From Candidatus Gastranaerophilales bacterium (GTDB taxonomy: Bacteria; Cyanobacteriota; Vampirovibrionia; Gastranaerophilales; Gastranaerophilaceae): DNA of 64,000 nucleotides. How positions within the stretch are numbered: position 1 is the stretch's first letter; each line of letters opens with the position of its first letter. The stretch covers positions 2,023 to 66,022 of the forward strand of contig CALVAM010000011.1 in the NCBI GenBank assembly GCA_944325545.1, given 5' to 3'. Under the pieces are notes generated by a model. It was not told the origin of the DNA. It saw nothing but the letters and a program-made list of their open reading frames with translations, and made no database searches. Of this stretch, positions 198-16,164 are shown piece after piece. A program made the position numbers and the translations under genes.

Positions 198-267
198 AAA
201 TTTTTTAAAATATATACAGCACTTATCTCTTTATGTTATTATGTTATAAAGAGAGTTGGGGGTATTT

Positions 268-966
268 ATGGAAGAGATGAATAATAAGCCTGTTGTTAAG
301 CTTATTTCTAAGCCTGATAATATGTTGAGAACAATTTACACTGCTGCAAGAACTTGTTATAGTGCGGATTCGCCTATTAATATTTATGACAAGGCAGAAG
401 ATGAAGCTAAAATGCTTAATCTAATAGAAAGAGTTGTAGGTTCAGGACATTATTCTGTTATAGAACATATACAAATTTCTTTTGCTATATCAAACGTTTC
501 AAGAGCTTGTACTCACCAACTTGTTAGACATCGTCATATGTCTTTTTCTCAAAAATCACAAAGATATGTGAAAGAAAAAGGACAATTTGATTATATTATT
601 CCTCCTACAATTGAGAAGAATGAAGAATTAAAAGCTAAATTTATCAGTTTTATGGAAGAAATTTCAAAAATGTATTGTGAATTTACTGATGCGGGAATTC
701 CTGCTGAAGATGCAAGAGCCGTTCTTCCTAATGCTGCTGCTAGTTCCATTGTTGCTAGTTTGAACTTGAGAGAATTAATTCACCTTGCTAATTTAAGACT
801 TTGTACAAGAGCTCAATACGAAATCAGAACACTCATAAAAATGATGTGTGATGAATTAATAAAAGAAGAAGTTTGGCTTAAACCTTATTTAGTACCAAAA
901 TGTGTTAGAAACGGTTTTTGTGATGAAGACAAATCTTGTGGAAGGATGCCTAAAGCGAGCGTATGA
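268..966 (+). CDS. thyX: FAD-dependent thymidylate synthase
   Basis: ThyX motif RHRHMSFSQKSQRY, plus GHYSVIEH, EDAR and LRLC..AQ.EIR; ATG at 268 behind a GGGGGT RBS preferred over TTG at 256. Confidence 0.95.
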   Translation: MEEMNNKPVVKLISKPDNMLRTIYTAARTCYSADSPINIYDKAEDEAKMLNLIERVVGSGHYSVIEHIQISFAISNVSRACTHQLVRHRHMSFSQKSQRYVKEKGQFDYIIPPTIEKNEELKAKFISFMEEISKMYCEFTDAGIPAEDARAVLPNAAASSIVASLNLRELIHLANLRLCTRAQYEIRTLIKMMCDELIKEEVWLKPYLVPKCVRNGFCDEDKSCGRMPKASV

Positions 967-1757
967 AAAAACTCGGTATAGTATTTATAATTCTTTTCAT
1001 TTGTTTAGTTATTTTTCATTTGTTGGTAATCCAGCCTAAAAAATATGTTGAAGAAGATTTATATGACAAAATCATAGAACGCGGAACAATAAAAGTCGGA
1101 ATTAATACTGATTCTAGGCCTTTTGGGTTTTATGATAAAGATTGGAATATTCAAGGATATGATGCCGATTTAGCAAGATATATTGCTCAATATATCTTAA
1201 AAAGTCCTAATGCGGTTGAGTTTTATCCGGTTACTCCTGCTAATAGAATTTTAAAAGTTTCTACAGGTGAGCTTGATATGGTTATCGCAACTATGACAAT
1301 TACTCCGCAAAGAAAAGATATTATAAAATTTTCAATTCCTTATGATTACGCTGGACAAGCTCTTTTAGTCAGATCCAATAGTAAAATAACTTCTATTGCC
1401 GATTTAGCGGGACTTAATGTTGGAGTTGTATTTGGGACTACTGCTGAAAAAAATATGTTAACACTTGCTCCTACTTCTACTATCATTGGTTTTAGAAATT
1501 ATCATGTTGCCTACGAAGCTTTAAAACAAGGAAAAATTGATGCATTAACTTCGGATGATACTATTCTTAGTACTTTTGCGTATGATGATAAAGATGTTAA
1601 ATTACTCCCTAAAAGATATTCTAAAGAACCCTATGGAATTGCTTTAAAGAAAAGTAAAAGCACTAAAAAATTAAAAGAAAACATTGATTTTGCAATAAAA
1701 GATATGCAAAGAAAAAATATTATTACAAGAATTAGAAGAAAATGGCTTAAATTATAG
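963..1757 (+). CDS. Polar amino acid ABC transporter substrate-binding protein (SBP family 3)
   Basis: RGTIKVGI, PFGF, GYDADLA, DMVIATMTITPQR, FSIPY and EPYGIA motifs; N-terminal hydrophobic anchor; ATGA overlap with thyX stop. Confidence 0.9.
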   Translation: MKKLGIVFIILFICLVIFHLLVIQPKKYVEEDLYDKIIERGTIKVGINTDSRPFGFYDKDWNIQGYDADLARYIAQYILKSPNAVEFYPVTPANRILKVSTGELDMVIATMTITPQRKDIIKFSIPYDYAGQALLVRSNSKITSIADLAGLNVGVVFGTTAEKNMLTLAPTSTIIGFRNYHVAYEALKQGKIDALTSDDTILSTFAYDDKDVKLLPKRYSKEPYGIALKKSKSTKKLKENIDFAIKDMQRKNIITRIRRKWLKL

Positions 1758-1758
1758 T

Positions 1759-2157
1759 TTAAGCTTTAACTTTAAACGCAAATTTTTTAAATAACACATA
1801 AGTGAAAATCGCAGCAGCTAAAGTTGCAAAGAATTGTGCTATATATACATTTGAATGAATAAATTTAACAAAAATTTCTAATAAACAAGCATTTATAAAA
1901 TAGCTAAAAATCCAAGTTGTACAGCATTTTAGATATTCTTTTTTCCAATCTCCTTTACTTCTAAAAACAAGGAATTTTTGAGTAGTAAAAGAAACAACAG
2001 AGGATATTAACCAAGCAAGAGCCAAGGCCATTTGATAAACTCTTTCACCAAAAATAATACAGATTAGTGAATAAATTAAATACGAAACACCGGCATTAAA
2101 TCCACCCACAAATAGAAATCTTATTTTATCTGATAAACCAAACCAAAACTTTTTCAA
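1759..2157 (-). CDS. GtrA family membrane protein (putative lipid-linked sugar translocase)
   Basis: IRFLFVGGFN, SFTTQKFLVF, four TM segments, C-terminal KKFAF. Confidence 0.88.
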   Translation of the reverse strand: MKKFWFGLSDKIRFLFVGGFNAGVSYLIYSLICIIFGERVYQMALALAWLISSVVSFTTQKFLVFRSKGDWKKEYLKCCTTWIFSYFINACLLEIFVKFIHSNVYIAQFFATLAAAIFTYVLFKKFAFKVKA

Positions 2158-2227
2158 AAAATCCTCCGACTATTAAATTAATGTCGGCAAAAAGTTTTAA
2201 AAAAACTTTTTGCCGCTATATTAATCC

Positions 2228-4489
2228 TTAAAACTTATATTCAGGAATCACAAATTGTTCATTATTTGCATCTTTTTCTACAAATTTCAAATAATAATCC
2301 AAAGCTTTTTCCTTAGAATTTTGATAAAACTCTTCTGAAATAAGTTCTCTATGTAATTCTGTTCTTTCGCCTGAATAATTACCTAAAACTCTTGAGAATT
2401 TTTCAATCATTTCAAGATTTTCACCACCTGAATAAGCTTTTGTTTTAGCATCTGTTCCGGATGGTCTTATTTCAACATATTTGTCTTTGAATTGTAAATA
2501 AGTTCCATCACCAACAAATTTTACAGAAACAAGATTATCGAAATTTAATTCTGCAAATGCATTATTAAGAACTTTTTTAACTGCTTCAACATCTGCAATG
2601 CCTTCTCTTATTGCAATTGCTAAAGATAAATAGAACATATCATTTTTAGTTCTTAATTTTTCACCTTCTATTTTTGCTAGTTTTAATTTTTCAATATCAG
2701 GTTCTGATTCGTTGTAATAAGAAATATCTTCTCTTACATCAAATTTTGCAATGATATTATTTTCTTCAAAAATTTCAATTAAGTATTCAGAAAGAGTTTT
2801 ATTATCTTCTTCCAATTTAGCAGCTAGAGCAGACGCTACAATAATAGCTTCCGTAGCACTTTTTTCTCTCATAGCAATTGCTTTTCTGCCAGCTAAAGAT
2901 TCAATTAAATCTTCAGAACCCATAATCATACCACCGGATTCTTCGCCTCCGAAAATTAATCTTGGTTGAACGCCCAAATTAATTGAATTTCCGAATACAT
3001 CATCTACAACAACTTCATCTTGAGGATTATTTTTAAGCTGCAATTCTACTTTTTTCATAATATTTGCAATTTCTTTAAATCCTACAGGGACATTTACAAC
3101 TTTAATTCCGTGAGCCTTTGCCCATTCATCCCAAGATAAAGCTGATGCTGTTGTTTTAATCATAAATCTAGGATGATTTTTGAATTTACCGCTTGCTTTT
3201 AATTGTTTTACACGATAATTCATTAACATCAAAAATGCTTGATTTGCACTGTAAACTGTTAATATTCTATCTTCATCCAATTGAATATATGAAATACCGT
3301 ATTCATCCAAATTTGGAACATTTCCACTTGCTTCAATTTGACAAACAGTAAGTCTATCGTGATCTGGGTCTGTAATTAATACAACAGTTCCTATAGGATA
3401 ATCAGCTAAAACTTTTTCATAGTGTAAAGATTCAATCACTGGGAAAAATCTTTCGCCATTAGGTTTTTTAGCAAGAACTGTTGCATCTACAGAATAATCA
3501 TAGAAAACTTTATTTCCTTTTGGATCAGTATCATATTTCCCGATACCGTGGAAGAATGGATCTTCTTCTGTATTATTCCATACAAATTTATCTTGAATAC
3601 CTAACTTTTCTAAAACTCTGCTCAAAGTTCTATAAGCACATCCGCCTACACTCTCAATAAATAATTTAGACTTCATTTTCTTAATGCTATCAAGATTTTG
3701 AGCAACGCCTGATTTTAAATATTCAACATATAAATCTACACCGTCATTCAATTTTGACATTATTTCTTCATCAATTAATTTATCATCACTTGCTGCTATT
3801 TTAATTTCATATTTACCTTCTTTTTCAGTAATATCAAAAATTTCTTGTATTTTATTTACAAATTCTAAAGATTCTTCAGGTAAATATTGGCTTCCTTGAG
3901 AATTTAAATCTTTAGTAGCAGTTTTTACAGAAATACCGTGACTTGAAGTAATATATTCTCCGCCAAGTAAATCAAGTTTGAACGCTAAAAATGAAGCTAA
4001 CCATATTGGGATGGTTTTTCTTTCCTTTGGAGTTAAAGTCTTAATACCTTGAGCAGCTTGTATTCTTGCAATAGCATCCAAATACAAATCTGAATTATAT
4101 CTTACTTCACTTCCCACAAGTTTTATAATTTCTTTTCCTGCATATTTTTCTCTTGCGACAAGTGCTTTAGCTAAAGTTGCTAAAACAATTCCAACTAAAT
4201 TAATAGGAAATCTTGTATCTTGAGGATATAAAATGTTTTGTGGACCTCTAATACCTGCTGTTGATACTTTTGCTTCTTTTGAATAATTTGCAAACCAATC
4301 TAGTAAATTTAATCCTTCTGGATTTTCTGAACTATGAGGATATAGGTGTTCTCTTTTTAATGTAAAAGTAAACTCACCTTTATTATCAAAATCCATTAGA
4401 TTCATATTTTTAATATAATCAGGAGTTTTATCAAAAACATTTTTGAACAACTCTTTTTCTAATTCACTTTTTGCTTCTTTTTTAATCAT
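2228..4489 (-). CDS. Alpha-D-phosphohexomutase (phosphoglucomutase/phosphomannomutase family), long form
   Basis: STAGIRG, phosphoserine loop ITSSHG, metal loop DPDHDR, GGEESGG, IRPSGT; ATG at 4489 has an AGGGAG RBS, preferred over 4570. Confidence 0.88.
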   Translation of the reverse strand: MIKKEAKSELEKELFKNVFDKTPDYIKNMNLMDFDNKGEFTFTLKREHLYPHSSENPEGLNLLDWFANYSKEAKVSTAGIRGPQNILYPQDTRFPINLVGIVLATLAKALVAREKYAGKEIIKLVGSEVRYNSDLYLDAIARIQAAQGIKTLTPKERKTIPIWLASFLAFKLDLLGGEYITSSHGISVKTATKDLNSQGSQYLPEESLEFVNKIQEIFDITEKEGKYEIKIAASDDKLIDEEIMSKLNDGVDLYVEYLKSGVAQNLDSIKKMKSKLFIESVGGCAYRTLSRVLEKLGIQDKFVWNNTEEDPFFHGIGKYDTDPKGNKVFYDYSVDATVLAKKPNGERFFPVIESLHYEKVLADYPIGTVVLITDPDHDRLTVCQIEASGNVPNLDEYGISYIQLDEDRILTVYSANQAFLMLMNYRVKQLKASGKFKNHPRFMIKTTASALSWDEWAKAHGIKVVNVPVGFKEIANIMKKVELQLKNNPQDEVVVDDVFGNSINLGVQPRLIFGGEESGGMIMGSEDLIESLAGRKAIAMREKSATEAIIVASALAAKLEEDNKTLSEYLIEIFEENNIIAKFDVREDISYYNESEPDIEKLKLAKIEGEKLRTKNDMFYLSLAIAIREGIADVEAVKKVLNNAFAELNFDNLVSVKFVGDGTYLQFKDKYVEIRPSGTDAKTKAYSGGENLEMIEKFSRVLGNYSGERTELHRELISEEFYQNSKEKALDYYLKFVEKDANNEQFVIPEYKF

Positions 4490-4614
4490 AAAAAGTTTCT
4501 CCCTATCTAAAATATATCTTAAATTATACCATACATATTTTATTTCTTTATATAAAAAATGGTTAGACAAAAATATCTAACCATTTTTGAGTTATTAATT
4601 TCTATATTATTTTT

Positions 4615-7011
4615 TTAAATAAACAGGTTGGAATTAGCAGAAGAGCTTTCTTGAATATATTTAGCAACTCCTCCGATTTCAACTCCATCAATTAATTCTT
4701 CTTCTTTAATCCCCATAACATCCATTGACATATTGCAGGCAATAAATTTTACTCCATTATCTTGAGCCTGTTTAATAAGTTCATTTAGTGTAGAAACATT
4801 TTTATTTTTCATAACCCATTTCATCATAATGGAGCCCATTCCACCCATATTCATTTTAGAAAGAGTTAATTTATCAGCACCTTTAGGCATCATCATCCCA
4901 AACATTTTATCAATAAGACCTTTTTTAACATTTTTATCTGGACGTCTTAAAATATTTAATCCCCAGAAAGTAAAGAATAAAGTAACATCTTTTCCTGCTG
5001 CCTTGGCACCATTTGCGATAATCATTGCAGCAAGTGCTTTATCCAAATCATTTGAAAAAACTACTATCGTTTGAGAATTTCCGACATTTAAAACTTTGTT
5101 TTCATTAGTATCTTTGTTGCCTTTTTGAATAACAGCCCTAATAATTTTATTTTCTACTCTTAAACCTAAAAGTTTATTCCCTGTAGAATTACACCATGCA
5201 TCAATATCGGATTTAAATCCTCTGTCTGTTGATGTAACTTCTAAAATATCACCGTCATTAACTTCAATAATTTTAGATGCAACCTTCATAATCGGTCCGG
5301 GACATTGAAGTCCGCAAGCATCTATTTTGATTCTTTCACCACTATTTATAGAAGAAATATTATTAGCACTTACTAAAGATTGAACTTTAGATTTTTTCTC
5401 AATATTACCTACTTTATCTTTTTTCAATTCTTTATACAAAGAAATTCCGCCCATCAAAGAATACACATTATTAAATCCGTTTTGGATTAAAATTCTTGAA
5501 GCTACATAACTGTTATATCCTGTATTACAGAATAAAATAACTTTTTCATTCTTAGGAATTTCATTTAATCTTGTTCTTATCTCTTCAACAGGAATATTTT
5601 TAGCACTTCCAATCGTTGCTATTTCAAATATTTCACGCGGTCTTACATCAATTAGATAAGCACCTTCTAAATCTTCATAATACGCAGGTTTAATAAAGCC
5701 TCTTAAAATATTATCAGCATTCATTCCCAAAATATTAACCCCGTCCTTAGCAGAAGAATAAGGTGGAGCATAACATAATTCACTATCTAAAAGTTCTTGA
5801 ACAGTTCCGTTATTTCTCATAACAGAAGCTATAACATCAATTCTTTTTTCAACTCCGTCAACTCCAACCGCTTGAGCTCCAAAGATTTTTCCTGAATTAT
5901 CAAACAAAAGTTTATAACAAATTTGAGTTGAATTAGGATAATATCCGGCATGATCTCTTGAAAATACAAAAGTTTTCCAATAATCAACACCTCTTTGTAT
6001 AAGTTGTTTTTCATTATTCCCCACTGATGCTACAGTTAAATCAAAAACTTTTAAAACAGAAGTACCTTGTGATTTTTTATAAGTTGATTCAATACCGCAA
6101 ATATTATCTGCAATAATTCTGCCTTGTCTATTCGCAGGACCTGCAAGAGGAATTAAAGAATAATTATCAGATACAAAATCTTTAACTTCCACTCCATCGC
6201 CGCCTGCATAAATATCAGGATTAGAAGTCTGCATTCTATCATTTACAACAATACCTCTATTAACTTCTAAACCAGCATTTTTAGCGATTTCAATTTCAGG
6301 TCTTACTCCGATTGCCATTATTACGATATCAAATTCTATTTCTTTAGACGATGATAGAATAATTTTATTACCATCAAATTTTTGAACTCCATCACCTAAA
6401 ATTAATTCAACACCTCTATCACGCATTTCATTTTGTGCAAAAGCTGCAATTTCCCAATCTACAGGTGCTAAAATCTGTTTTTGCATCTCTACCAAAGATG
6501 TTTCCAAACCCATTTCAACAAGGTTTTCTGCCATCTCTACTCCTATAAAACCACCACCGATTACTACAGCTTTTTTACAATTGTTCTCTTTTATATATTC
6601 TTTTATTTTATCTGCATCATATAAAGTACGAAGCGTAAAAATTTTATCCTTTGGTAAACCTTCAAATTCAGGAACAAAAGGGCTTGCTCCTTGAGCTAAT
6701 ACTAATTTATCATATGAAATCTCTTCATTGTTTTCTAATTTAACTGTTTTTAGTTCAGGATTTATACTAACAACTTTAGAAAATAATCTAACTTCTATAT
6801 TTAATAAATTATGAAATTTTTGAGGAGAAGATACCAAAATCTTTTCTCTTTCATCAATTACTCCTGAAACATAATAAGGTAAACCGCAATTAGCTATAGA
6901 AGTTTCACCTGTTTTTTCTAAAACTATTATTTCAGCATTCTCATCTAATCTTCTTATTCTTGCAGCAGCACTCGCTCCGCAAGCTCCTCCGCCTATTATT
7001 ACTACTCTCAT
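4615..7011 (-). CDS. CoA-disulfide/persulfide reductase fused to rhodanese, TusA/SirA and DsrE/F domains
   Basis: GGGACG FAD motif, ANCGLPY redox Cys, GGGFIGVE NAD(P)H motif, YAPPY; rhodanese FCNTG; TusA IDACGLQCPGP; DsrE TLFFTFWGL and IACNMSMDVMG. Confidence 0.92.
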   Translation of the reverse strand: MRVVIIGGGACGASAAARIRRLDENAEIIVLEKTGETSIANCGLPYYVSGVIDEREKILVSSPQKFHNLLNIEVRLFSKVVSINPELKTVKLENNEEISYDKLVLAQGASPFVPEFEGLPKDKIFTLRTLYDADKIKEYIKENNCKKAVVIGGGFIGVEMAENLVEMGLETSLVEMQKQILAPVDWEIAAFAQNEMRDRGVELILGDGVQKFDGNKIILSSSKEIEFDIVIMAIGVRPEIEIAKNAGLEVNRGIVVNDRMQTSNPDIYAGGDGVEVKDFVSDNYSLIPLAGPANRQGRIIADNICGIESTYKKSQGTSVLKVFDLTVASVGNNEKQLIQRGVDYWKTFVFSRDHAGYYPNSTQICYKLLFDNSGKIFGAQAVGVDGVEKRIDVIASVMRNNGTVQELLDSELCYAPPYSSAKDGVNILGMNADNILRGFIKPAYYEDLEGAYLIDVRPREIFEIATIGSAKNIPVEEIRTRLNEIPKNEKVILFCNTGYNSYVASRILIQNGFNNVYSLMGGISLYKELKKDKVGNIEKKSKVQSLVSANNISSINSGERIKIDACGLQCPGPIMKVASKIIEVNDGDILEVTSTDRGFKSDIDAWCNSTGNKLLGLRVENKIIRAVIQKGNKDTNENKVLNVGNSQTIVVFSNDLDKALAAMIIANGAKAAGKDVTLFFTFWGLNILRRPDKNVKKGLIDKMFGMMMPKGADKLTLSKMNMGGMGSIMMKWVMKNKNVSTLNELIKQAQDNGVKFIACNMSMDVMGIKEEELIDGVEIGGVAKYIQESSSANSNLFI

Positions 7012-7121: not shown

Positions 7122-8288
7122 ATGTTATACGATGAAGCTATAAAATTATTGACGAATAAAGGCAATTTTTACATAGATTTAGGTTTAGAAAGAATTTCTA
7201 AAGTCTTAGATTTATTTAATAATCCTCAAGATAAGCTTAAATATATTCATGTTGCTGGAACTAACGGAAAAGGCTCTGTTTGTTCTATTTTGGCTTCTAT
7301 TTTACAAGAAGCCGGTTATAAAACAGGACTTTACACAAGTCCGCATATTTGGGAATACACAGAAAGAATTAAGATTAATGGTAACGATATTCCTAAAGAA
7401 GAGTTCAGTCAACTTATTTATGAAGTCACAACAAAAATTAATGAAAATAAAATTCATTTAACAGAGTTTGAAATATTAACAGTTGTTATGTTTTTGTACT
7501 TTCAAAAAAATAATGTTGATATAGTTGTTTTAGAAACAGGACTTGGCGGTAGATTGGATGCTACAAATGTAATTAAAAATAATCTATGTTCAATAATTAC
7601 TCAAATTGATTTGGATCATACTGATAGATTAGGTAAAACAAAAGATGAAATAGCTTATGAAAAGGCTGGTATAATAAAGAAAAATTGTCCTGTTATTACA
7701 AGTATGGGATATGAAGCAATAAGAGATAAAGCAGATGAAGAAAATTCTATGTTTATTCTTGCAACACCTTTTGTTAATCCTATTTTTATAGAAGCTCTTT
7801 CTTTAAAAGGTATGCACCAAATTGAAAATTTGGCTCTTGCAGTTAATGCTATTAATTATTTATTCAAAGATATTTCTGATGAAACTATTATTGAAGGTTT
7901 AAAAAAAGTTAAAAATCCTTGCAGATTTCAATATATTCCTGAAAAAAATTTAATAATTGATGCTTCTCATAACCCTAATGGAATAAAAGCTTTAAGAGAA
8001 AATTTGGATTATTATTTCCCTAATGATAAACGAAGATTTATTTTCGGATGTTTAAATACTAAAGACTATGAAAAAATGATGAGTATTTTATTTAAAGAAG
8101 ATGATGAAGTTTTTATAAATGAATTTGATTATCCAAATGCTTGTACTTATGATGAATTAAAAGTTAAATGCCCTATAAGTGTTAAAAAATATAATCATTG
8201 TCTGAATTTAGATTTTGATAAATTAACAATAATTTGCGGTTCATTTTATATGATAGGAAATATGAAAGAATTAAAAAATTTTCTTTAA
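7122..8288 (+). CDS. folC: Folylpolyglutamate synthase/dihydrofolate synthase
   Basis: IHVAGTNGKGS, YTSPH, ETGLGGRLDATN, DHTDRLG, EKAGI, IDASHN, CGSFY. Confidence 0.95.
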   Translation: MLYDEAIKLLTNKGNFYIDLGLERISKVLDLFNNPQDKLKYIHVAGTNGKGSVCSILASILQEAGYKTGLYTSPHIWEYTERIKINGNDIPKEEFSQLIYEVTTKINENKIHLTEFEILTVVMFLYFQKNNVDIVVLETGLGGRLDATNVIKNNLCSIITQIDLDHTDRLGKTKDEIAYEKAGIIKKNCPVITSMGYEAIRDKADEENSMFILATPFVNPIFIEALSLKGMHQIENLALAVNAINYLFKDISDETIIEGLKKVKNPCRFQYIPEKNLIIDASHNPNGIKALRENLDYYFPNDKRRFIFGCLNTKDYEKMMSILFKEDDEVFINEFDYPNACTYDELKVKCPISVKKYNHCLNLDFDKLTIICGSFYMIGNMKELKNFL

Positions 8289-8290
8289 TT

Positions 8291-9157
8291 TTATTCTTCC
8301 CAAATATCAAAAAAATTATAAAATTGATGCGGATATTTAAGCGTATATTTTTCTAAAAATTCTACATATTTATTTTCTAATTCTTCTATGATTTCGGATT
8401 TATTAGTTTTAGTGGGAATAAATTTTTCAATTATAACTCGATATTTTTTACCTTCTTTTACACATAAAATAAAACGAATAGGAGCTTCCAGCATCAGGGC
8501 AAATCTTATTACACCAAGAGGGAGAGATATTGTTTTACCAAGAAAAGTTTTTTTATAGATTTTATCGGCATTTTGTGCGGATATTCTATCTCCTGCCATA
8601 AAAACATTTTCACCTTGTTTAAGTTTTTCTGAAATTAAAATCGATGTATTTAAATTAATTTCTTCTATAGGAAAAGTATCTAAAGCTACTTTTTTTTCAA
8701 ATGTATTGAGAAATTTCCTGAATATTTCACAAACATTTGCCTGCAAAAAGACGTTTACTTTTGTATTTTTATAATCCTCTAATAAACTTCTTAAAATCTC
8801 CACATTTCCAATATGAGTTGTTAAATAAAACACTCCTGTTTCAAAATCCGAATCTTCATATACAAAATTTTTATTATCAAAATCTCCTAAAAATGATAGT
8901 ATTTTATCGACAAGAGAATTGCCATAATTAATAAATTGTATCCAAGAATCCAATAAAATATTTTTACGACCTAAAATTTTAAAGAATTTTTCAGAAGCTT
9001 TTCTTCTATCTTTTGCCTTAAAAAAAGTTATTAAAACAACAAAAAAAGCTATTATTCTTAAGATATTTTTTCCAAAAATTTTATATAGATAAAAACTTAA
9101 TATGAGTCTTTTTTCACCGGCTCCGCTTTCAGAGAGTTGAAACCAATTTTTACGCAT
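8291..9157 (-). CDS. LpxL-like acyltransferase, resembling the acyltransferase half of aryl-polyene ApeJ
   Basis: WFQLSESG start, TTHIGNVE (HxxxxE-type), MAGDR, FLGK, W/FYNFFDIW-type C-terminus; last gene of the ape-like operon. Confidence 0.75.
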   Translation of the reverse strand: MRKNWFQLSESGAGEKRLILSFYLYKIFGKNILRIIAFFVVLITFFKAKDRRKASEKFFKILGRKNILLDSWIQFINYGNSLVDKILSFLGDFDNKNFVYEDSDFETGVFYLTTHIGNVEILRSLLEDYKNTKVNVFLQANVCEIFRKFLNTFEKKVALDTFPIEEINLNTSILISEKLKQGENVFMAGDRISAQNADKIYKKTFLGKTISLPLGVIRFALMLEAPIRFILCVKEGKKYRVIIEKFIPTKTNKSEIIEELENKYVEFLEKYTLKYPHQFYNFFDIWEE

Positions 9158-10199
9158 TTTTTACACACTCCAAAAGTGTATAATCAAATGCACCAAGATT
9201 ATCGTAAATATAGTTTATTCTTAGTCCTGATTTTTCAATAATTTTTTCCATATCAGAATAAGAATACATTTTACTGCAACCGTTTGCCATTGCTGTAAAA
9301 TATAATGATGTATGAACTAAAGAATATTTTGCACCCACAAATCTTTGTCTATCAATAAAAGGTTCTAAAATATAGATTTTTATATCATCTGAACTTGTTT
9401 TTACTAATCTTTTTAATATAAATTCAATTTGTTCCTTAGAAAAACAATCCAAAAACTGACTCATTAAAATTGCACCTGACATTTTTGGAAGTTTGGATTT
9501 TTCGTCTAAAATATCGGCAGAATGGAATTTACATCCTGCAAGCTCTTTATCATTTTTTATTACTTCAATATTTTCTTTTAAATCAATCATAGTAATATCA
9601 ATTTTAGGATTATTTTTCAAGCAAATTCTTTCAAACCTACCTGTATTTCCACCAATATCAAAGATTTTTTCACTATTTTCAATAATTTTATAAATGATAT
9701 TAAAACAATTATCTGAATAGAAATGATCGAATTCATACCAACTTTTTTTTATTACTTCAGGTAATCTTGATAGATAAGGATATATTGTCTTAGCTTCCGG
9801 AAATAGTTTTTTTATGCCCTCTGGAGAAGATTTTTCAAACGATGATTTTAACTCATCGGCTCCTAAATAGCATACATCTTTTACAAAATTAAAATTAACC
9901 CTTGTCATTTCATCATATAAAAATGTTTTTCCAAGTTGAGTAATATAAAATTTATCTTCTTTTTTCTCTACTATTTCTATCGCTTCAGCTACTTCTAAAA
10001 GTGTGTTCACAGTATATTCTGAAAGCTCTAAAATCTTTTGAATTTCTTCAATACTTTTAGGACTCTCATCTATAGTTTTTAAAATCCCAAATTCAAGCAT
10101 AGAATTTATTGCCTGAAAGCTCAAAGGTGCGAATGCTATTTTTTGAGCTTCTGTTAGTGATTTTATAATATTCTTTTTATGTTTATCTCTATTGTTCAT
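9150..10199 (-). CDS. SAM-dependent O-methyltransferase with N-terminal dimerisation/wHTH domain
   Basis: EAQKIAFAP, SAM-binding IFDIGGNTG, MSQFLDCF, ANGCSKMY. Confidence 0.85.
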   Translation of the reverse strand: MNNRDKHKKNIIKSLTEAQKIAFAPLSFQAINSMLEFGILKTIDESPKSIEEIQKILELSEYTVNTLLEVAEAIEIVEKKEDKFYITQLGKTFLYDEMTRVNFNFVKDVCYLGADELKSSFEKSSPEGIKKLFPEAKTIYPYLSRLPEVIKKSWYEFDHFYSDNCFNIIYKIIENSEKIFDIGGNTGRFERICLKNNPKIDITMIDLKENIEVIKNDKELAGCKFHSADILDEKSKLPKMSGAILMSQFLDCFSKEQIEFILKRLVKTSSDDIKIYILEPFIDRQRFVGAKYSLVHTSLYFTAMANGCSKMYSYSDMEKIIEKSGLRINYIYDNLGAFDYTLLECVKNA

Positions 10200-12204
10200 T
10201 CCCTGATTTTATCATAAAAAGACTTAGTAAATAAGAAATTGTAATCCCAATAAACAAAGTTATTCCAAGTGAGCTTATGAGTTTAAATCTTACAAATGAA
10301 AGCATCAAAAACGAAAATGCAGTTGAAAGGAATGAAATAAATACAGCATCCTTAGATTTTTCGCAATTTTGGGTTCTAAAAATTGAATAATCCAAACTAA
10401 ACCCTAGAATTAAAAATAGAGCCAAAATATTAAATAAATTTATTGGAATATTAAAAAGACTAATTATAGAAATTGAAAATAATATACCTAAAAGTGGTGA
10501 AATTATTATTCTAAAAGCCTGTTTTAATCCATAGTTAAAGCTTAAAAATAAATACAAAATCACAAATACTATAGGGAATAATTTTAAGCATTGTATTCTT
10601 ATTTTTTTTAACTCTTTTGAAATCTCTAACGCAGGATCTATCGCATTATCCACATTTTCACTTGTAATAATAAATGCTGTATTATTATCAAGCATGAATT
10701 TCTGTTTTAATGGAAAATTTTCTACATCATAATGAGTGAAATTTTTGTTTTCTAAAGCTTTTATTTGTGCTTGGGATAGAAATTTTCCATAAGATTTCAA
10801 ATTATTTTTATATAATTCTTTTACAAGTATGAAATTCTCTTTTTGTTTGTCAGTAGAAAAAATAAAATCACTCAAGCTGATTGAATTTTTAATATTCAAT
10901 TTTTCTTCTTTTTTAAGGATTTCATCAGTATTTTTACCGTTAATTAAGATATACTTAATATTTTTTTGCCCAAATAATTCTTGATTAAGTCTTTCAGATT
11001 TTATCAATTCTTTTGGCGGAGTATAAAGATTTTTCAAGTTATCATTGAATTTGAGGTTAAAAAATCCTAAAACTGTTATTCCAAAAATTATAGATAAAAT
11101 TAAAGGTTTGAATTTTGTTATATCAAATTTTGATAAACTGTTTATCTTAAAATCATTATTTTTAGATAAAATAAATACAACAAAAAAATACACCCCCAAA
11201 AGTCCTGATGCTGTAAATATTCCGATTTGTTTTAGTAATTCTATCCCAGAAAAATTCAAAATTAAAAAAGCAAAAACAGTTGTCAGCATGGAATTAGTAA
11301 GACTTTTTATAAAAAGTTTATTGTTATCATTCAAATAATAATGCAAAGAATAATCTAAACTTATTCCAATTAATGAGGTAGAAAAAACAAACGTTAAAAT
11401 GTGGATTTTATGAAAAATAATACTTGAAACAGAAAATCCCATCAAAAATCCAAAAATTATACTCGCTAAAATCGGAAGAATAATCTTATAGGATTTAAAA
11501 TAAAATTTGCATAATAAAATAAGAGCTAAAGTTGAAATTATACATATTATATTAATTTCAAGACTCGAGTTTTTAGATGCCAAATAAGAATGAATAGGAG
11601 TTCCTGTAAGGTATATTTTTCCATCATCTAATTGTTTTTGTTTATTTAAAATATTTTCTAATTCTTTATTATTGTCTATTTCTACTTGAGTAGAGCTATA
11701 AAATTTACCTTGATATTCTTTAATCTCTGTTTCATATCTTTTTGATAAAGAATTCAAAAAATCTCCCGATAACATATATGGGTCATTACTCGGATCAGAA
11801 AGAAAAATTCCAAAAGGATTATATAACCTTATAAGAGCATCATTTTCTATAGTTTTATAATCTTTTTTTTCTAATTGGTTTTTAATATTCTCACTCAAAA
11901 AATTTTCAGGGTAACTTCCATAAATATTTATAACATCGCTAAAAATCGGATTGTATTGCCTGTATTCGTTTTTTAATTCTTCAACTCTTTGAGGATTATC
12001 TGATTCAAAAATTATATTCAAATTTTTAGATGATAGTTGAGCAAGTTTTATTAAATTAGAATTATTATCCAAAAACGCTCTTGTAATTTCTGTATCAATA
12101 CCTTTAAGGCTAAATATTCCAACAATAAAAATTATAGTCGCAGTTAAGAAAAAAATAATTTTTTTAAACATGTTTTTCCCATTTGATATTAGTTTTAGTT
12201 CCAT
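10189..12204 (-). CDS. MMPL/RND-like exporter (ApeM-like)
   Basis: Two TM bundles separated by soluble loops, each with the signature GISLDYSLHY / GFSLDYSIF. Confidence 0.82.
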   Translation of the reverse strand: MELKLISNGKNMFKKIIFFLTATIIFIVGIFSLKGIDTEITRAFLDNNSNLIKLAQLSSKNLNIIFESDNPQRVEELKNEYRQYNPIFSDVINIYGSYPENFLSENIKNQLEKKDYKTIENDALIRLYNPFGIFLSDPSNDPYMLSGDFLNSLSKRYETEIKEYQGKFYSSTQVEIDNNKELENILNKQKQLDDGKIYLTGTPIHSYLASKNSSLEINIICIISTLALILLCKFYFKSYKIILPILASIIFGFLMGFSVSSIIFHKIHILTFVFSTSLIGISLDYSLHYYLNDNNKLFIKSLTNSMLTTVFAFLILNFSGIELLKQIGIFTASGLLGVYFFVVFILSKNNDFKINSLSKFDITKFKPLILSIIFGITVLGFFNLKFNDNLKNLYTPPKELIKSERLNQELFGQKNIKYILINGKNTDEILKKEEKLNIKNSISLSDFIFSTDKQKENFILVKELYKNNLKSYGKFLSQAQIKALENKNFTHYDVENFPLKQKFMLDNNTAFIITSENVDNAIDPALEISKELKKIRIQCLKLFPIVFVILYLFLSFNYGLKQAFRIIISPLLGILFSISIISLFNIPINLFNILALFLILGFSLDYSIFRTQNCEKSKDAVFISFLSTAFSFLMLSFVRFKLISSLGITLFIGITISYLLSLFMIKSGNEQ

Positions 12205-12685
12205 CTTTAGTGATTATTGTCATTTTTTTTATATAGTCACTACCTGAAATTTCTATTGATTTTAAATAATCATATGCAGGTGAATTTTTTTGTGGAACTA
12301 GACCAAGAGTCCAAGTGTTTCCTTGATTTGTAAAAAAGAATTTGAACTCTTTTTCAAGCTTTGAGTAATTCTTTTTAGAAATAGCAAGAATTATATTATT
12401 AATTTGACGATATTCCTTTGTTGTATATGAAGTTGTACTTTTTATCGGATAAGTTGTATAAAAAGTTACTCCAACATCTTCTTTAAATTCAAAATTTCCT
12501 GATGATTTTAGTATTACATTTGAATTAGGAAATATTTTTTCTTGACTGAATTTGCAATTTATGCTTTCAAGCTTTGGCAAATTATTTTCAAATTCGCTAA
12601 TTTTTTTCGGATAATCAAATACATTTGCAAAACTTTGCAAATTAAGCATAAAAAACATAAATAAAGCTAAAAAAATTCTAATCAT
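12164..12685 (-). CDS. LolA-like lipoprotein/lipid carrier (ApeL-like)
   Basis: Signal peptide, FSQEK...LKSSGNF, WTLGLVP; located between thioesterase and MMPL genes as in ape clusters; start may be 12697. Confidence 0.7.
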   Translation of the reverse strand: MIRIFLALFMFFMLNLQSFANVFDYPKKISEFENNLPKLESINCKFSQEKIFPNSNVILKSSGNFEFKEDVGVTFYTTYPIKSTTSYTTKEYRQINNIILAISKKNYSKLEKEFKFFFTNQGNTWTLGLVPQKNSPAYDYLKSIEISGSDYIKKMTIITKDGTKTNIKWEKHV

Positions 12686-13088
12686 TGTATTCCTCAACTG
12701 CTTTTACTAATTTTTCAGGAGCATTATACAAAGTCTCACCGGTCTTAAAATTTACTCCTATTTGCATGGTATTTGCTTTAAATATTTTTTCATTATTCAA
12801 ATAAATATTGTATTTAATAATAATAGCAGGTTCAAGCTCCTGTAAAATACACTCAACCACTATTCCTTCATCAAATTTAGCGGATTTTATATATTTCATA
12901 TCCATTTTTACAATAGGATACATAATTCCATCATTTTTCATATCATCATAAGTGTATTTAAGCTTTCTAAAAAAATCACATCTTGCCATTTCTAAGTATT
13001 TAACATAGTTTCCGTGCCAGACAACTTGCATAGGATCTACATCATAAAATGGTATTCTAATTTTTGTTTTAGTAACTATTTTTTTCAT
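12678..13088 (-). CDS. Hot-dog fold acyl-CoA/ACP thioesterase (4HBT/YbgC family, ApeK-like)
   Basis: FYDVDPMQVVWHGNYVKYLEMAR. Confidence 0.9.
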   Translation of the reverse strand: MKKIVTKTKIRIPFYDVDPMQVVWHGNYVKYLEMARCDFFRKLKYTYDDMKNDGIMYPIVKMDMKYIKSAKFDEGIVVECILQELEPAIIIKYNIYLNNEKIFKANTMQIGVNFKTGETLYNAPEKLVKAVEEYND

Positions 13089-14545
13089 AAATTCCCTACT
13101 AAATCATTTTTAATCGGTAAAATTCCACTTGAATAAGTTTTAATCTCATCTTTGTATTTAAAACTGATTCCTGTGTCTGTTTTTGTAAGTTCTAAATCAA
13201 TAATTTGATTAGGCTTAATAATATTTGCAAATTTTACCCTTCTAATTTGTCCACAATGACAATCTAAATTGTAAGCAAGTTTTATAAAAAAATCTACATA
13301 AAATAACTGTACAACACCTGCTAAAATCGGTAAATCTTCAAAATGACCTTTGAAAAAATTACTGTTCTCTAAAAATATAAGCCTAAATGTTATAGAATTG
13401 TCTTTTTTTACTCTTGATAAAATCAAAGGTAAAGAAAGATTCAATTCAAACAATTCTCTAATTCTTTCTTTATCAATTTTTCCTCTTATATTCTTAGGTA
13501 TTTCATCAAAGAATTTCCATTTTTGAGGAATTTTTTCAAAATCATCTTTGAGATGCTTCTTTAAACTTTTAATTAATTCAACAGAACCGCTTTTTAGTAA
13601 ATAATCTTTGCCTAAGTCATTTAAAACAGCTAAAGTTGCGATTTTTCCCGCAAATTCAAAACAGTAACAATCATCTATATATTCATTTTCTTTTATTTTA
13701 TTTTCAAGAATATCCGCATCAATTCGCTTTTCTTGAACTTTTAATACTCTATCGCTTCTTCCTACAAGCTCAATTTCATCTTCAAATATTTTCATTTTAT
13801 CTTTTATAATCTGATGATTTTCTTTAGAATACTCCGTTAAAATTTCTGTACAATCATCTTTTGAAGCTAAAATTTTTATACCTTTAAATAATTTTAAACG
13901 CTTAGAATTATAATCTTTGCGATATCCTATTGAGCCGCTTTCGCTGCTTCCGTAAATATCAATAACATCATTAGAACAAATAGATTTAGCATATTCATAA
14001 GTCTTATCTTCAAGCTTCGCACCTGCAGTAAAAATATATCTAGGCTTAACTTCTATTTGAACATCATATTTTCTCATTGTTTCCAAAAAAGAAGGAGTTG
14101 TTATAAGAACTGAATTTTTTATATTTAAATCCTCGGGATAATTAATTCTTTTAAGATTAATCATAAACCCTGAATTTAGAGGAAATACAAAATGAAATGT
14201 TGCACCAAAAAGATGTTCTAAAGTTGTAGTTGAAATAAATTCCAAATCCCCTTCAAAATGGAATTCTTCCAATAAATCATCACTTTCAATAATCATATTT
14301 TGAATAGTTTTTTTAACACAACTGTTTTTATCAGAAGTTGAACCGCTTGTATAGAATTCAATATCTTCATTATTTATTGCTTTTTTAAGAAAATCTATTG
14401 CTAATCTTAAATTTTCATCCTCAATATTATTTGATAGGAGTAAAGATTTTATTTCTTTAACAGTATAATTCTTATCTCCATTTTTGAAGATAACTTTTTC
14501 ATCATATTCACTGGTTTTAAAATATTTTAAAAAATTATTATCCAA
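13085..14545 (-). CDS. AMP-dependent acyl-CoA/ACP ligase fused to a C-terminal FabA/FabZ-like dehydratase (ApeH+ApeI-like)
   Basis: YTSGSTS, TTLEHLFG, IYGSSESG, GRSDR and GK adenylation motifs; C-terminal FFKGHFEDLPILAGVVQL hot-dog motif; TTG start. Confidence 0.8.
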   Translation of the reverse strand: MDNNFLKYFKTSEYDEKVIFKNGDKNYTVKEIKSLLLSNNIEDENLRLAIDFLKKAINNEDIEFYTSGSTSDKNSCVKKTIQNMIIESDDLLEEFHFEGDLEFISTTTLEHLFGATFHFVFPLNSGFMINLKRINYPEDLNIKNSVLITTPSFLETMRKYDVQIEVKPRYIFTAGAKLEDKTYEYAKSICSNDVIDIYGSSESGSIGYRKDYNSKRLKLFKGIKILASKDDCTEILTEYSKENHQIIKDKMKIFEDEIELVGRSDRVLKVQEKRIDADILENKIKENEYIDDCYCFEFAGKIATLAVLNDLGKDYLLKSGSVELIKSLKKHLKDDFEKIPQKWKFFDEIPKNIRGKIDKERIRELFELNLSLPLILSRVKKDNSITFRLIFLENSNFFKGHFEDLPILAGVVQLFYVDFFIKLAYNLDCHCGQIRRVKFANIIKPNQIIDLELTKTDTGISFKYKDEIKTYSSGILPIKNDLVGNL

Positions 14546-14600
14546 ATTTTTCCCTTTTATTTGAATTTTAACATTTATTTTTCGATACTAATAAACATTT

Positions 14601-14685
14601 GTCATTCCGAATTTATTTCGGAATCTTATCAACTTAAGATTTAAACCTTTTTTATTGTAAGATGCTGAAACAAGTTCAGCATGAC
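14601..14685. repeat. Inverted pair of 26-nt GTCA-hairpin units (REP/dRS3-like element)
   Basis: GTCATTCCGAATTTATTTCGGAATCT at 14601-14626; the unit at 14660-14685 reads GTCATGCTGAACTTGTTTCAGCATCT on the minus strand. Confidence 0.75.
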
Positions 14686-14697
14686 GTATTTAATATT

Positions 14698-14722
14698 CTA
14701 TTCACTACTCACTATTCACTAA
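14698..14722. repeat. Dispersed 25-nt heptamer element, copy 1 (CTATTCACTACTCACTATTCACTAA)
   Basis: Exact match to copies at 31351 and 33098; one mismatch to the copy at 31819. Confidence 0.9.
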
Positions 14723-15155
14723 CTTCATTTATCTTTCTAAGTCTACATCTTATTATGTATTCTATACCAAAAAATAAACCTACAAGCATATAGGAAATAA
14801 ATCCATTATATAAAATCCAAATCTCTTTTGATAAAAATACTGTTATAAGAGATACTAAAAAGTTTAAAAACATAAAAATAGACCAAAGATAAGTAAGATT
14901 TCTCGTGTATTTTAATACCCATTCTTTAGCGTCAGGCTCTATAGCTAAAGCAAATTTTTGAATAGCAGTTCTTTCTTGAAATATTGATGAAAAAAATACA
15001 ATAAAAAGTCCTAAATTTACCACAACAGGATAGTATTTAAAAAATATTAAATTCGTAAAATGAAATGCAAAAATTACCAAAAACATGGTAACAAAAGGCA
15101 AAATTGCTTTAAAAAATTTACCCAAGCAAGCCATAAACAGCTTCCACAATATCAT
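14712..15155 (-). CDS. COG4648-type membrane protein (ApeG-like)
   Basis: KYYPVVVN, FFSSIF, YTRNLTYLWSIF, W.LYNGFISYMLVG..FGIEY..R; start could be 15134. Confidence 0.82.
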   Translation of the reverse strand: MILWKLFMACLGKFFKAILPFVTMFLVIFAFHFTNLIFFKYYPVVVNLGLFIVFFSSIFQERTAIQKFALAIEPDAKEWVLKYTRNLTYLWSIFMFLNFLVSLITVFLSKEIWILYNGFISYMLVGLFFGIEYIIRCRLRKINEVSE

Positions 15156-15372
15156 TTACTGTTCTAATTTTTTTAAACTCATCAGGAGGTAATTTTTTAT
15201 CAGTAAATTTTTGCATTCTAACAGCAATATCTACCGCATCTATGCTATCTAAATCTAAATCCTCAAAAAGATTAGCTTCTAAATTTATAAGATTTTCATC
15301 AATCTCTAACTCTTCAACCAGGATATTAGTTAACTCATCAAGAATTTGTTCTTTTGTGATACTATTAGCCAT
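15118..15372 (-). CDS. Acyl carrier protein (ApeF-like)
   Basis: DLDLDSIDAVDI phosphopantetheine motif, FKKIRTVNDIV. Confidence 0.92.
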   Translation of the reverse strand: MANSITKEQILDELTNILVEELEIDENLINLEANLFEDLDLDSIDAVDIAVRMQKFTDKKLPPDEFKKIRTVNDIVEAVYGLLG

Positions 15373-15622
15373 TAATTTTCTCCTTAATGTATTCAGCTAA
15401 AGTATCAATAGAATAAAAATATTTCTTATTTTCTTCTTTATCGGAACTCAAAATTATATTAAATTTTCTTTTAATAGCCATACCAAGCTCTAAAGCATCA
15501 ATAGAATCCAATCCTAAACCTTCTCCAAATAAAGGTTCATCATTTTTTATATCATTAGGAGTTATGTCTTCTAACGCCAATGTTTCAATTATTAAATTTT
15601 TAATCTCTTCTCTTAATTCCAT
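15365..15622 (-). CDS. Acyl carrier protein (ApeE-like)
   Basis: PLFGEGLGLDSIDALELG, SIDTLAEYI. Confidence 0.92.
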   Translation of the reverse strand: MELREEIKNLIIETLALEDITPNDIKNDEPLFGEGLGLDSIDALELGMAIKRKFNIILSSDKEENKKYFYSIDTLAEYIKEKING

Positions 15623-15628
15623 ACCAGT

Positions 15629-15657
15629 ATTATATCATAAATTATATTTTAATACAA
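15629..15657 (-). promoter_or_regulatory. Sigma-70 promoter of the ape-like operon, probably leaderless
   Basis: Minus strand TTGTAT-N17-TATAAT with TGn extended -10; only 6 nt between the -10 and the ATG at 15622; no SD. Confidence 0.7.
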
Positions 15658-15659
15658 AA

Positions 15660-15684
15660 CAGGGCTAAATTATATTTAGCCCTG
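15660..15684 (-). terminator. Intrinsic terminator after the Hsp20 gene
   Basis: Perfect 11-bp stem CAGGGCTAAAT/ATTTAGCCCTG followed by TTTTG on the minus strand. Confidence 0.8.
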
Positions 15685-15708
15685 AAAAAGTTTAATTCTT
15701 ATTTTTAA

Positions 15709-16164
15709 TTAGTCTACAGTAAGTTTTTTAATGTTATCTTTCTTAAAATCAAGTTTAGGAGCAGTAATTTTTAAAATACCGTGTTCCAACTTAGCATTAG
15801 TTTTTTCAACATCAATTTCTTGAGGGAAATAAACAGTTCTAGAAAATTCACCATATCTGAATTCAGATTTTCTGTATCCTTTAGTATCTTCTTTTTGTTC
15901 TTCTTCTTTTTTTGCATTGATTGTTATATGGTTTTTATCAATATCGATATCCAAATCTTCCTTTTTAACTCCGGGAAGTTCAGCTTTTACACTATATTCA
16001 TTGTCTTTTTCGTGAAGTTCTACAGGCATTGCGAACTTGTCAACTTCTTCATTATAAATGTATTCTGGGAAAAAGCTGTCAAAATTTCTGTTTAAAATAG
16101 AACTGATTTCATCATTTACGGATTTTATAAACCCATCTGGTGATTTTTTAATTAAGAATTTCAT
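15709..16164 (-). CDS. Hsp20/alpha-crystallin small heat shock protein
   Basis: MPVELHE, AELPGVKKEDLDI, EFRYGEFSRTV.FP, AKLEHGILKIT.PK. Confidence 0.93.
   Translation of the reverse strand: MKFLIKKSPDGFIKSVNDEISSILNRNFDSFFPEYIYNEEVDKFAMPVELHEKDNEYSVKAELPGVKKEDLDIDIDKNHITINAKKEEEQKEDTKGYRKSEFRYGEFSRTVYFPQEIDVEKTNAKLEHGILKITAPKLDFKKDNIKKLTVD

Follow-up and report, generated by a model that had tools for sequence, protein, structure and literature searches.

Aryl polyene (APE) clusters are, among bacterial biosynthetic gene clusters (BGCs), the family with the widest distribution. The reference cluster, APE_Ec of Escherichia coli CFT073, comprises apeA–apeR (c1204–c1186; PMC8253772). In Xenorhabdus, ApeH loads the carrier protein ApeE, ApeD acylates lysophospholipid and the acyltransferase of ApeJ transfers the polyene from ApeE, and the glycosyltransferase (GT) half of ApeJ installs the N-acetylgalactosamine (GalNAc) that bears the polyene (bioRxiv 10.1101/2020.12.19.423268). 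The window analyzed here is a stretch of 64,000 nucleotides from a Candidatus Gastranaerophilales bacterium (GCA_944325545.1, contig CALVAM010000011.1, positions 2,023 to 66,022). Its minus strand carries, at 8291–15622, an operon which very probably is one half of a canonical, rearrangement-split APE lipid cluster of Gastranaerophilales, the other half being located on a separate 10.9-kb contig of the same genome. In a literature search, no publication turned up that connects aryl polyenes to Melainabacteria, Gastranaerophilales or Vampirovibrionia.

The window belongs to contig C11 of a metagenome-assembled genome (MAG)-like assembly (G000; 1.82 Mb, 37 contigs, 99.6% complete), and the second locus (L004) is contig C30 of this assembly. 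Genes were called from an open reading frame (ORF) listing and hidden Markov model (HMM) scans with Pfam and NCBIfam, bit scores being quoted against the cut-offs of the models, and were compared by BLASTP with the E. coli CFT073 ape region, the proteins of which bear the prefix Ec. The class was surveyed in 201 genomes, 49 of which are in the family of the window (48 besides G000 itself).

The operon consists of nine co-directional minus-strand genes, running from 15622 to 8291 in the order apeE, apeF, apeG, an apeH-apeI fusion, apeK, apeL, apeM, apeB and the acyltransferase half of apeJ. Neighboring genes overlap by 4–41 nt, and the sole gap, between apeG and the fusion gene, is 166 bp. The first two genes encode acyl carrier proteins (ACPs): ApeE (15365–15622), the carrier for the aryl-polyene chain, matches NF006617 (91.9 bits; cut-off 70), is 58% identical to EcApeE and has the DSI serine motif, and ApeF (15118–15372), the second carrier, matches NF003757 (106.6 bits; cut-off 65) and is 55% identical to EcApeF. 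ApeG (14712–15155), a COG4648-type membrane protein of 147 aa, is 30% identical to EcApeG (E 1e-18); neither protein has a Pfam or NCBIfam match.

The fusion gene (13085–14545) encodes a 486-aa protein with an adenylating aryl-acid:ACP ligase domain (PF00501) at about residues 1–367 and a hotdog dehydratase domain (PF22818) at about residues 374–477. In BLASTP, EcApeH matches residues 62–367 (E 5e-24) and EcApeI matches residues 397–474 (E 7e-6). The PF22818 score of the window protein is just 18.7 bits, below the cut-off of 28.5; its homologs carry PF22818, and more than 385 database proteins have the PF00501 plus PF22818 architecture, so that the ApeH-I fusion is common. In an alignment of 34 sequences, the TSGST and YGSTE motifs, a C-terminal GK and the hotdog GHF...PGV motif (including His401) are invariant. 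A sequence search of the Protein Data Bank (PDB) with ApeH-I gave weak DltA-type matches only, and a fold search was needed: an AlphaFold (AF2) model (pLDDT 86.9) was matched by Foldseek to the ANL fold at probability 1.0, including DltA, MenE, 4-chlorobenzoate ligase and EntE. Motifs and modeled fold thus both point to ApeH as an adenylating starter:ACP ligase, with a putative substrate.

Downstream of the fusion gene, apeK (12678–13088) encodes a YbgC-type thioesterase (TIGR00051, 82.9 bits; cut-off 68.7) with 31% identity to EcApeK (E 6e-25). The next product (12164–12697) is an ApeL-like periplasmic carrier of the LolA family (PF03548, 30 bits; cut-off 23.6) with a weak LolA2_flexi match. 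It has no BLASTP match to EcApeL and is the sole protein of the operon without an E. coli Ape match; its assignment is based on the Pfam LolA match and on gene position, which is conserved across all related clusters. ApeM (10189–12204) is an exporter of the MMPL/RND type (PF03176) to which EcApeM aligns over 630 residues (E 2e-23). ApeB (9150–10199), the ring methyltransferase, has 349 aa and an O-methyltransferase fold, is 40% identical to EcApeB (E 1e-84) and shares with it the Dimerisation2 plus Methyltransf_2 architecture.

The last gene (8291–9157) encodes a stand-alone homolog, 288 aa in length, of the C-terminal LpxL-like acyltransferase half of ApeJ (EcApeJ residues 248–550, E 3e-34). 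Its H115-x4-E120 (THIGNVE) and G189-D190-R191 motifs are invariant among seven orthologs including the EcApeJ C-terminal half. The protein itself has no Pfam match and weak NCBIfam matches (E 0.003–0.008), and an alignment profile searched against PDB sequences gave chance ankyrin matches only; the ortholog at locus L026 passes PF03279 (Lip_A_acyltrans; 23.0 bits against 22.3). The reading made from the window sequence without database searches (hereafter the sequence-only reading) had mapped these genes onto apeE-F-G-H/I-K-L-M, and the BLASTP matches bear this out, ApeL by Pfam and position only. It had listed the O-methyltransferase and the LpxL-like acyltransferase as following these genes; they are homologs of ApeB and of half of ApeJ and not additions to the cluster.

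Neither a ketosynthase (KS) nor a ketoreductase (KR) was found inside the operon by the ORF listing and HMM scans, as the sequence-only reading had stated. A whole-genome search with PF00109 found no KS on contig C11 and exactly three in the genome: the housekeeping FabF on contig C33 and two on C30. The gene set of C30 consists of apeO-apeP-apeQ-apeR and, divergently, apeC-apeD. The ApeO-like KS scores 302 bits with PRK09185, below the cut-off of 407, and is 33% identical to EcApeO. Its best PDB match is 6qsp_A (E 1e-54), an entry that we take to be the KS:chain-length factor (CLF) structure from Xenorhabdus doucetiae. The ApeP-like dehydratase matches PF22817 (53 bits against 27) and is 27% identical to EcApeP; taken with the ApeI domain, this indicates that the genome has the dehydratase pair ApeI and ApeP. 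The FabG-type KR ApeQ matches NF004200 (350 bits against 273) with 52% identity to EcApeQ, and the second KS, ApeR, matches the equivalog NF006587 (643 bits against 470) with 55% identity to EcApeR. On the divergent strand, the CLF ApeC (Ketoacyl-synt_2; PF13723, 89 bits) is 30% identical to EcApeC, and ApeD, a PlsC-type acyltransferase (LPLAT), is 25% identical to EcApeD (E 5e-18). The Cys-His-His residues of the ApeO-like KS and the Ser-Tyr-Lys residues of ApeQ are retained. The sequence-only reading had headlined a pathway without KS, which does not survive the discovery of these six genes, a result that this reading had itself named as one that would refute it. Of its three options for the missing KS and KR, the one that they lie elsewhere holds; elongation by type II fatty acid synthesis (FAS II) of the host is not needed, and nothing gives cause to expect a different lipid.

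The two halves are joined in most relatives. In a Gastranaerophilales MAG (L027; GCA_017560095.1, contig JAFYOU010000025.1) and in genome G167 (L038), the genes form a single contiguous cluster in the order R<-Q<-P<-O | C->D->E->F->G->HI->K->L->M->B->AT, AT being the acyltransferase; in L027 this spans one 13-kb stretch in which the C30 block is followed by the window block. The ApeR equivalog scores above its cut-off in 36 of the 201 class genomes, all of them among the 49 of the family (0 of 152 elsewhere). Among the other 48 family genomes, ApeH-I is present in all 35 that are ApeR-positive and in none of the 13 that are ApeR-negative, and none has a window-type operon without Ape ketosynthases. 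In 25 of these 35 genomes ApeR and ApeH-I are divergent and 4.4–6.7 kb apart, as in a contiguous cluster; in one (the closed genome G158, L037) the cluster is single, with the block from apeG to the acyltransferase moved behind apeR; and in nine the cluster is split, with its parts either on separate contigs or separated by 25–80 kb of the same contig. ApeR and ApeH-I thus co-occur strictly across the family. In the class sample, APE carriers make up about three-quarters of the species of the window's family and occur in no other sampled family.

The split in the window genome is shared by close relatives. Five nearer relatives each have FabF, ApeO and ApeR only, with the KS and ApeH-I loci on different contigs; in G001, a 93%-identical congener, the two contigs measure 517 kb and 203 kb. 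Synteny with G001 places C30 between contigs C21 and C5 and not adjoining C11, and therefore a distance of tens of kb or more probably separates the two halves. An arrangement in which C30 abuts the start of C11, with the halves about 10 kb apart, had been suggested by the flanks of the KS locus in G004 and G005 (see below) and was rejected on the same evidence from the 517-kb contig of G001.

The same 15 ape genes persist across differing breakpoints, and no other gene is common to three or more of the loci; nor do these have a conserved neighbor that would be a candidate for making the starter. In G004 and G005, which are more distantly related, the break is between apeC and apeD, leaving apeD ahead of the ACP genes; in the window genome and its congeners it is between apeD and apeE; and in G158 it is between apeF and apeG. 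In G001 there is in addition an inversion between apeG and apeHI, one end of which falls in the spacer of these two genes; apeE-apeF-apeG are about 34 kb away from apeHI there and have the opposite orientation. Genes for a tyrosine recombinase, a PLD-family protein, a YdjC protein and a GT2-family protein now stand upstream of apeHI there (L006; G001 contig C13, 5304–9804). In G004 and G005, the loci L009 and L010 have no apeK, the LolA-like gene coming straight after that for ApeHI, and ApeH-I is shorter (about 430 aa); the absence of apeK fits the E. coli apeK deletion mutant, which keeps its pigment and makes immature APE carboxylic acids (PMC8253772). The KS loci of these two genomes (L024, 573–4763; L025, 14378–18753) are flanked by homologs of the genes at window positions 256–4570, which in the window sit just past folC and a CoA-disulfide reductase gene. 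This hints that the entire cluster may ancestrally have stood in the neighborhood of the window.

Dispersed repeats are found at the edges of these blocks. The apeG/apeHI spacer (14546–14711) is 166 bp in the window compared with 56 bp in the congener locus L007, being enlarged by dispersed modular repeats that combine a heptamer array with hairpins. The family consists of an AGTGA(A/G)T heptamer array and hairpin modules such as GGTGCAAAAAATTGCACC, ACGTCACCCTGAATTCATTTCAGGGTC, GATTCCGAAATAAATTCGGAATGAC and CCCTCAAGGGGAGGG; the stop codon of apeG falls within the array. A 21-mer core, AGTGAATAGTGAGTAGTGAAT, has exactly 22 copies in the genome, many of them at contig ends. Besides the site in the window (14546–14725), repeats are present at positions 1–900, 7659–8005 and 10437–10915 of C30, and fill the head of C30, the 480 bp that follow apeD, the apeO/apeP spacer and, in the window, the enlarged apeG/apeHI spacer. 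The positions of the repeats suggest that the cluster was probably split through rearrangement at dispersed intergenic repeats.

The sequence-only reading had also described the operon as a closed unit with its own promoter, ending at a convergent folC, and the surrounding elements agree with this. The upstream neighbor outside the operon is hsp20 (15709–16164, minus strand; PF00011, E 6e-22), which is followed by a strong intrinsic terminator hairpin (15660–15684, minus strand) with an 11-bp stem, five GC pairs and a T-run; the predicted terminator insulates the operon from upstream. A candidate promoter with an extended -10 element, TGATATAAT (15629–15637, minus strand), was read from the sequence and ends 6 nt 5' of the apeE ATG. 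The three congeners have three different flanks 5' of apeE, namely hsp20 in the window, tRNA-Leu(CAA) together with a small ORF at L007, and a different ORF at L008; hsp20 is missing from this position in both L007 and L008. Despite these differing flanks, TGnTATAAT stands at an equal distance from apeE in L007 and L008, the common part being the last 25 nt or so including the extended -10. This element is the probable promoter of the operon, and, because it ends 6 nt before the start codon, a leaderless or near-leaderless apeE transcript is suggested.

At the other end, the convergent folC (7122–8288, plus strand; TIGR01499, 340 bits; cut-off 163) stops 2 nt from the end of the operon, closing it downstream. 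Beyond folC, a minus-strand gene at 4615–7011 encodes a 798-aa flavoprotein of the CoA-disulfide-reductase type with a C-terminal DsrE2-like sulfur-carrier domain (NF047629, residues 648–798). The GC content of positions 8000–16000, where the operon lies, is 24–26%, compared with 28–34% for the remaining window and the genome.

In comparison with APE_Ec, the genome of the window has a one-to-one homolog for each of ApeB, C, D, E, F, G, H, I, K, M, O, P, Q and R, as well as for the acyltransferase half of ApeJ, and both systems have tandem ACPs, a KS/CLF pair with a second KS, and the order E-F-G-H-I-...-K-L-M. They differ in that the window genome has two loci, a fused apeH/apeI, apeB at the 3' instead of the 5' end, an ApeJ without its GT2 half, no ApeN (DUF3261) and no ApeA, and in that O-P-Q-R is divergent from, and not downstream of, the remainder; protein identities are 23–58%. 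The Xenorhabdus doucetiae APE/APEL system is similar in its KS, taken to be the best PDB match to the ApeO-like protein, but differs in the GalNAc-installing GT half of ApeJ, which the window genome lacks. The contiguous Gastranaerophilales clusters L027 and L038 are closest, with 41–78% protein identity and with the same 15 genes, ApeH-I fusion and trailing ApeB and acyltransferase genes; these have one locus with two divergent operons, whereas the window genome is broken between apeD and apeE. Judging from gene content, this is an ordinary APE cluster with minor lineage-specific features.

The roles of the enzymes can be proposed by analogy with the characterized E. coli and Xenorhabdus systems (PMC8253772; bioRxiv 10.1101/2020.12.19.423268), with a putative aryl starter and a putative product; the enzyme logic of Xenorhabdus should carry over to the window genome. 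ApeH would adenylate an aryl acid and load it onto ApeE. The chain would then be elongated with malonyl units by ApeR and ApeO-ApeC, and reduction by ApeQ and dehydration by ApeP/ApeI would produce the conjugated polyene, the ring of which would be methylated by ApeB. ApeK might act in release and possibly aid ApeJ-type transfer. ApeD would acylate a lysophospholipid, the ApeJ-type acyltransferase would move the finished polyene from ApeE to the lipid anchor, and ApeG, ApeL and ApeM would export the lipid to the outer membrane. In this scheme, the window half would provide starter loading, carriers, the ApeI dehydratase subunit, methylation, release, attachment and export, and the C30 half would provide chain building by the ApeO-ApeC KS/CLF, ApeR, ApeQ and ApeP together with ApeD. 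Because the intermediates would ride on free-standing, diffusible ACPs, the two transcription units could act in trans and linkage of the genes would not be required.

Several points weigh against a split but canonical APE lipid cluster. The halves are on separate contigs of a MAG-like assembly, and mis-binning of C30 is conceivable from this genome alone; to counter this, C30 is 94–96% identical to the 517-kb contig of the congener and carries the genome's own dispersed repeats. Co-expression of the halves and a polyene product are predictions from the gene content. The GT2 half of ApeJ is absent from both loci and from the relatives' contiguous clusters, the genome having generic GT2 matches only, on contigs C23 and C19, and neither ApeN (DUF3261) nor ApeA was detected in the genome by tblastn or in these contiguous clusters. 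Of the enzymes of attachment, ApeD on C30 and the ApeJ acyltransferase half in the window are present, and of the export set ApeG, ApeM and the LolA-family protein. As the GT2 half is absent, the final lipid may differ from that of Xenorhabdus, and probably either another acceptor is used or the acceptor comes from an unlinked enzyme. Because they are absent from the contiguous clusters too, the missing parts would represent a trait of the family, not decay.

The supply of starter and of carrier activation also weighs on this side. The search for an enzyme supplying the aryl starter was negative: UbiC (PF04345), an Rv2949c-like chorismate lyase (PF01947) and an aromatic ammonia-lyase such as tyrosine ammonia-lyase (TAL; PF00221) are absent genome-wide, XanB2-type chorismatase not having been searched. 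Chorismate synthase is present (C29:2572-3672). The presence of an ApeB ortholog with 40% identity speaks for a phenol as the head group here too. No phosphopantetheinyl transferase (PPTase) of the ACPS family (PF01648) was found in the genome, even at E <= 10. As the genome holds FabF, FabH and three ACPs, and FAS II also needs a PPTase, this absence would not be literally true, and the enzyme is either very divergent or encoded in an assembly gap.

A more distinctive version of the proposal can be considered, in which one gut family of non-photosynthetic relatives of cyanobacteria makes a variant APE lipid with a chromophore from a scavenged aromatic acid, a stand-alone ApeJ-type acyltransferase and a GalNAc-free anchor, and in which the 15 genes would form two or three modules able to move, with dispersed intergenic repeats changing their order and the whole set always kept or lost together. 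This is possible but is held only tentatively, being clearly less probable than the canonical cluster.

That the system is instead a decaying or non-functional relic, split by repeats and left without starter supply, PPTase, the ApeJ glycosyltransferase half and ApeN, is improbable. Repeat insertions are found in two spacers, apeG/apeHI and apeO/apeP, and behind apeD, UbiC, TAL and PPTase are undetected, and the whole system has been lost in 13 of the 49 family genomes, all of which would be consistent with decay. However, all 15 genes are full-length intact ORFs with catalytic motifs retained, the set survives at least four different breakpoints, and the parts that are missing are missing from contiguous clusters as well. 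The losses, moreover, take both halves together, as would be expected if selection acts on the system.

A cluster of the flexirubin type seen in Bacteroidota, in which the polyene is esterified to a dialkylresorcinol, is suggested by the best NCBIfam names of three proteins, namely an FlxJ-family methyltransferase for ApeB (350 bits), LolA2_flexi for the LolA-like protein (33 bits) and an FlxB short-chain dehydrogenase/reductase (268 bits). All three scores are, however, under the cut-offs of 560, 125 and 340, respectively, and the FlxJ nomenclature was not found in the literature. The genome has a single 3-ketoacyl-ACP synthase III (KAS III; FabH) and hence no DarB candidate, the DarB model reaching 23.8 bits, on ApeR, against a cut-off of 550. 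In addition, no TAL is encoded, the KS, ACP and KR matches that do exceed their cut-offs are to enterobacterial PRK models, and the methyltransferase architecture is shared by EcApeB. A flexirubin-type cluster was rejected on the single KAS III, the absent TAL and the sub-threshold Flx models, and an E. coli-type APE lipid is strongly preferred.

Equally hard to credit is a self-contained pathway without KS, in which the host FAS II elongates what these ACPs carry or the operon makes and exports another lipid that is methylated and acylated. In its favor, neither a KS nor a KR is located in the operon or on contig C11, and the operon, with a promoter and terminator context of its own, stands as one unit between differing flanks in congeners. 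Against it, the genome encodes ApeO, C, R, Q and P dedicated to the pathway; these co-occur strictly with the operon across the family (35 of 35 and 0 of 13) and are physically joined to it in most relatives, and the Ape ketosynthases are never missing from a genome that has it.

A false lead is thereby removed, in that the window genome has no KS-less polyene pathway. APE clusters are often split in small, repeat-rich gut genomes, and BGC callers keyed to KS genes would be expected to report the C30 half and to miss the operon for loading, tailoring and export. The findings document an intact, selectively maintained APE system in Gastranaerophilales. With its ApeH-I fusion and without an ApeJ glycosyltransferase half, ApeN or an obvious starter source, this system could inform how APE lipids are anchored and what role they play in strict gut anaerobes.

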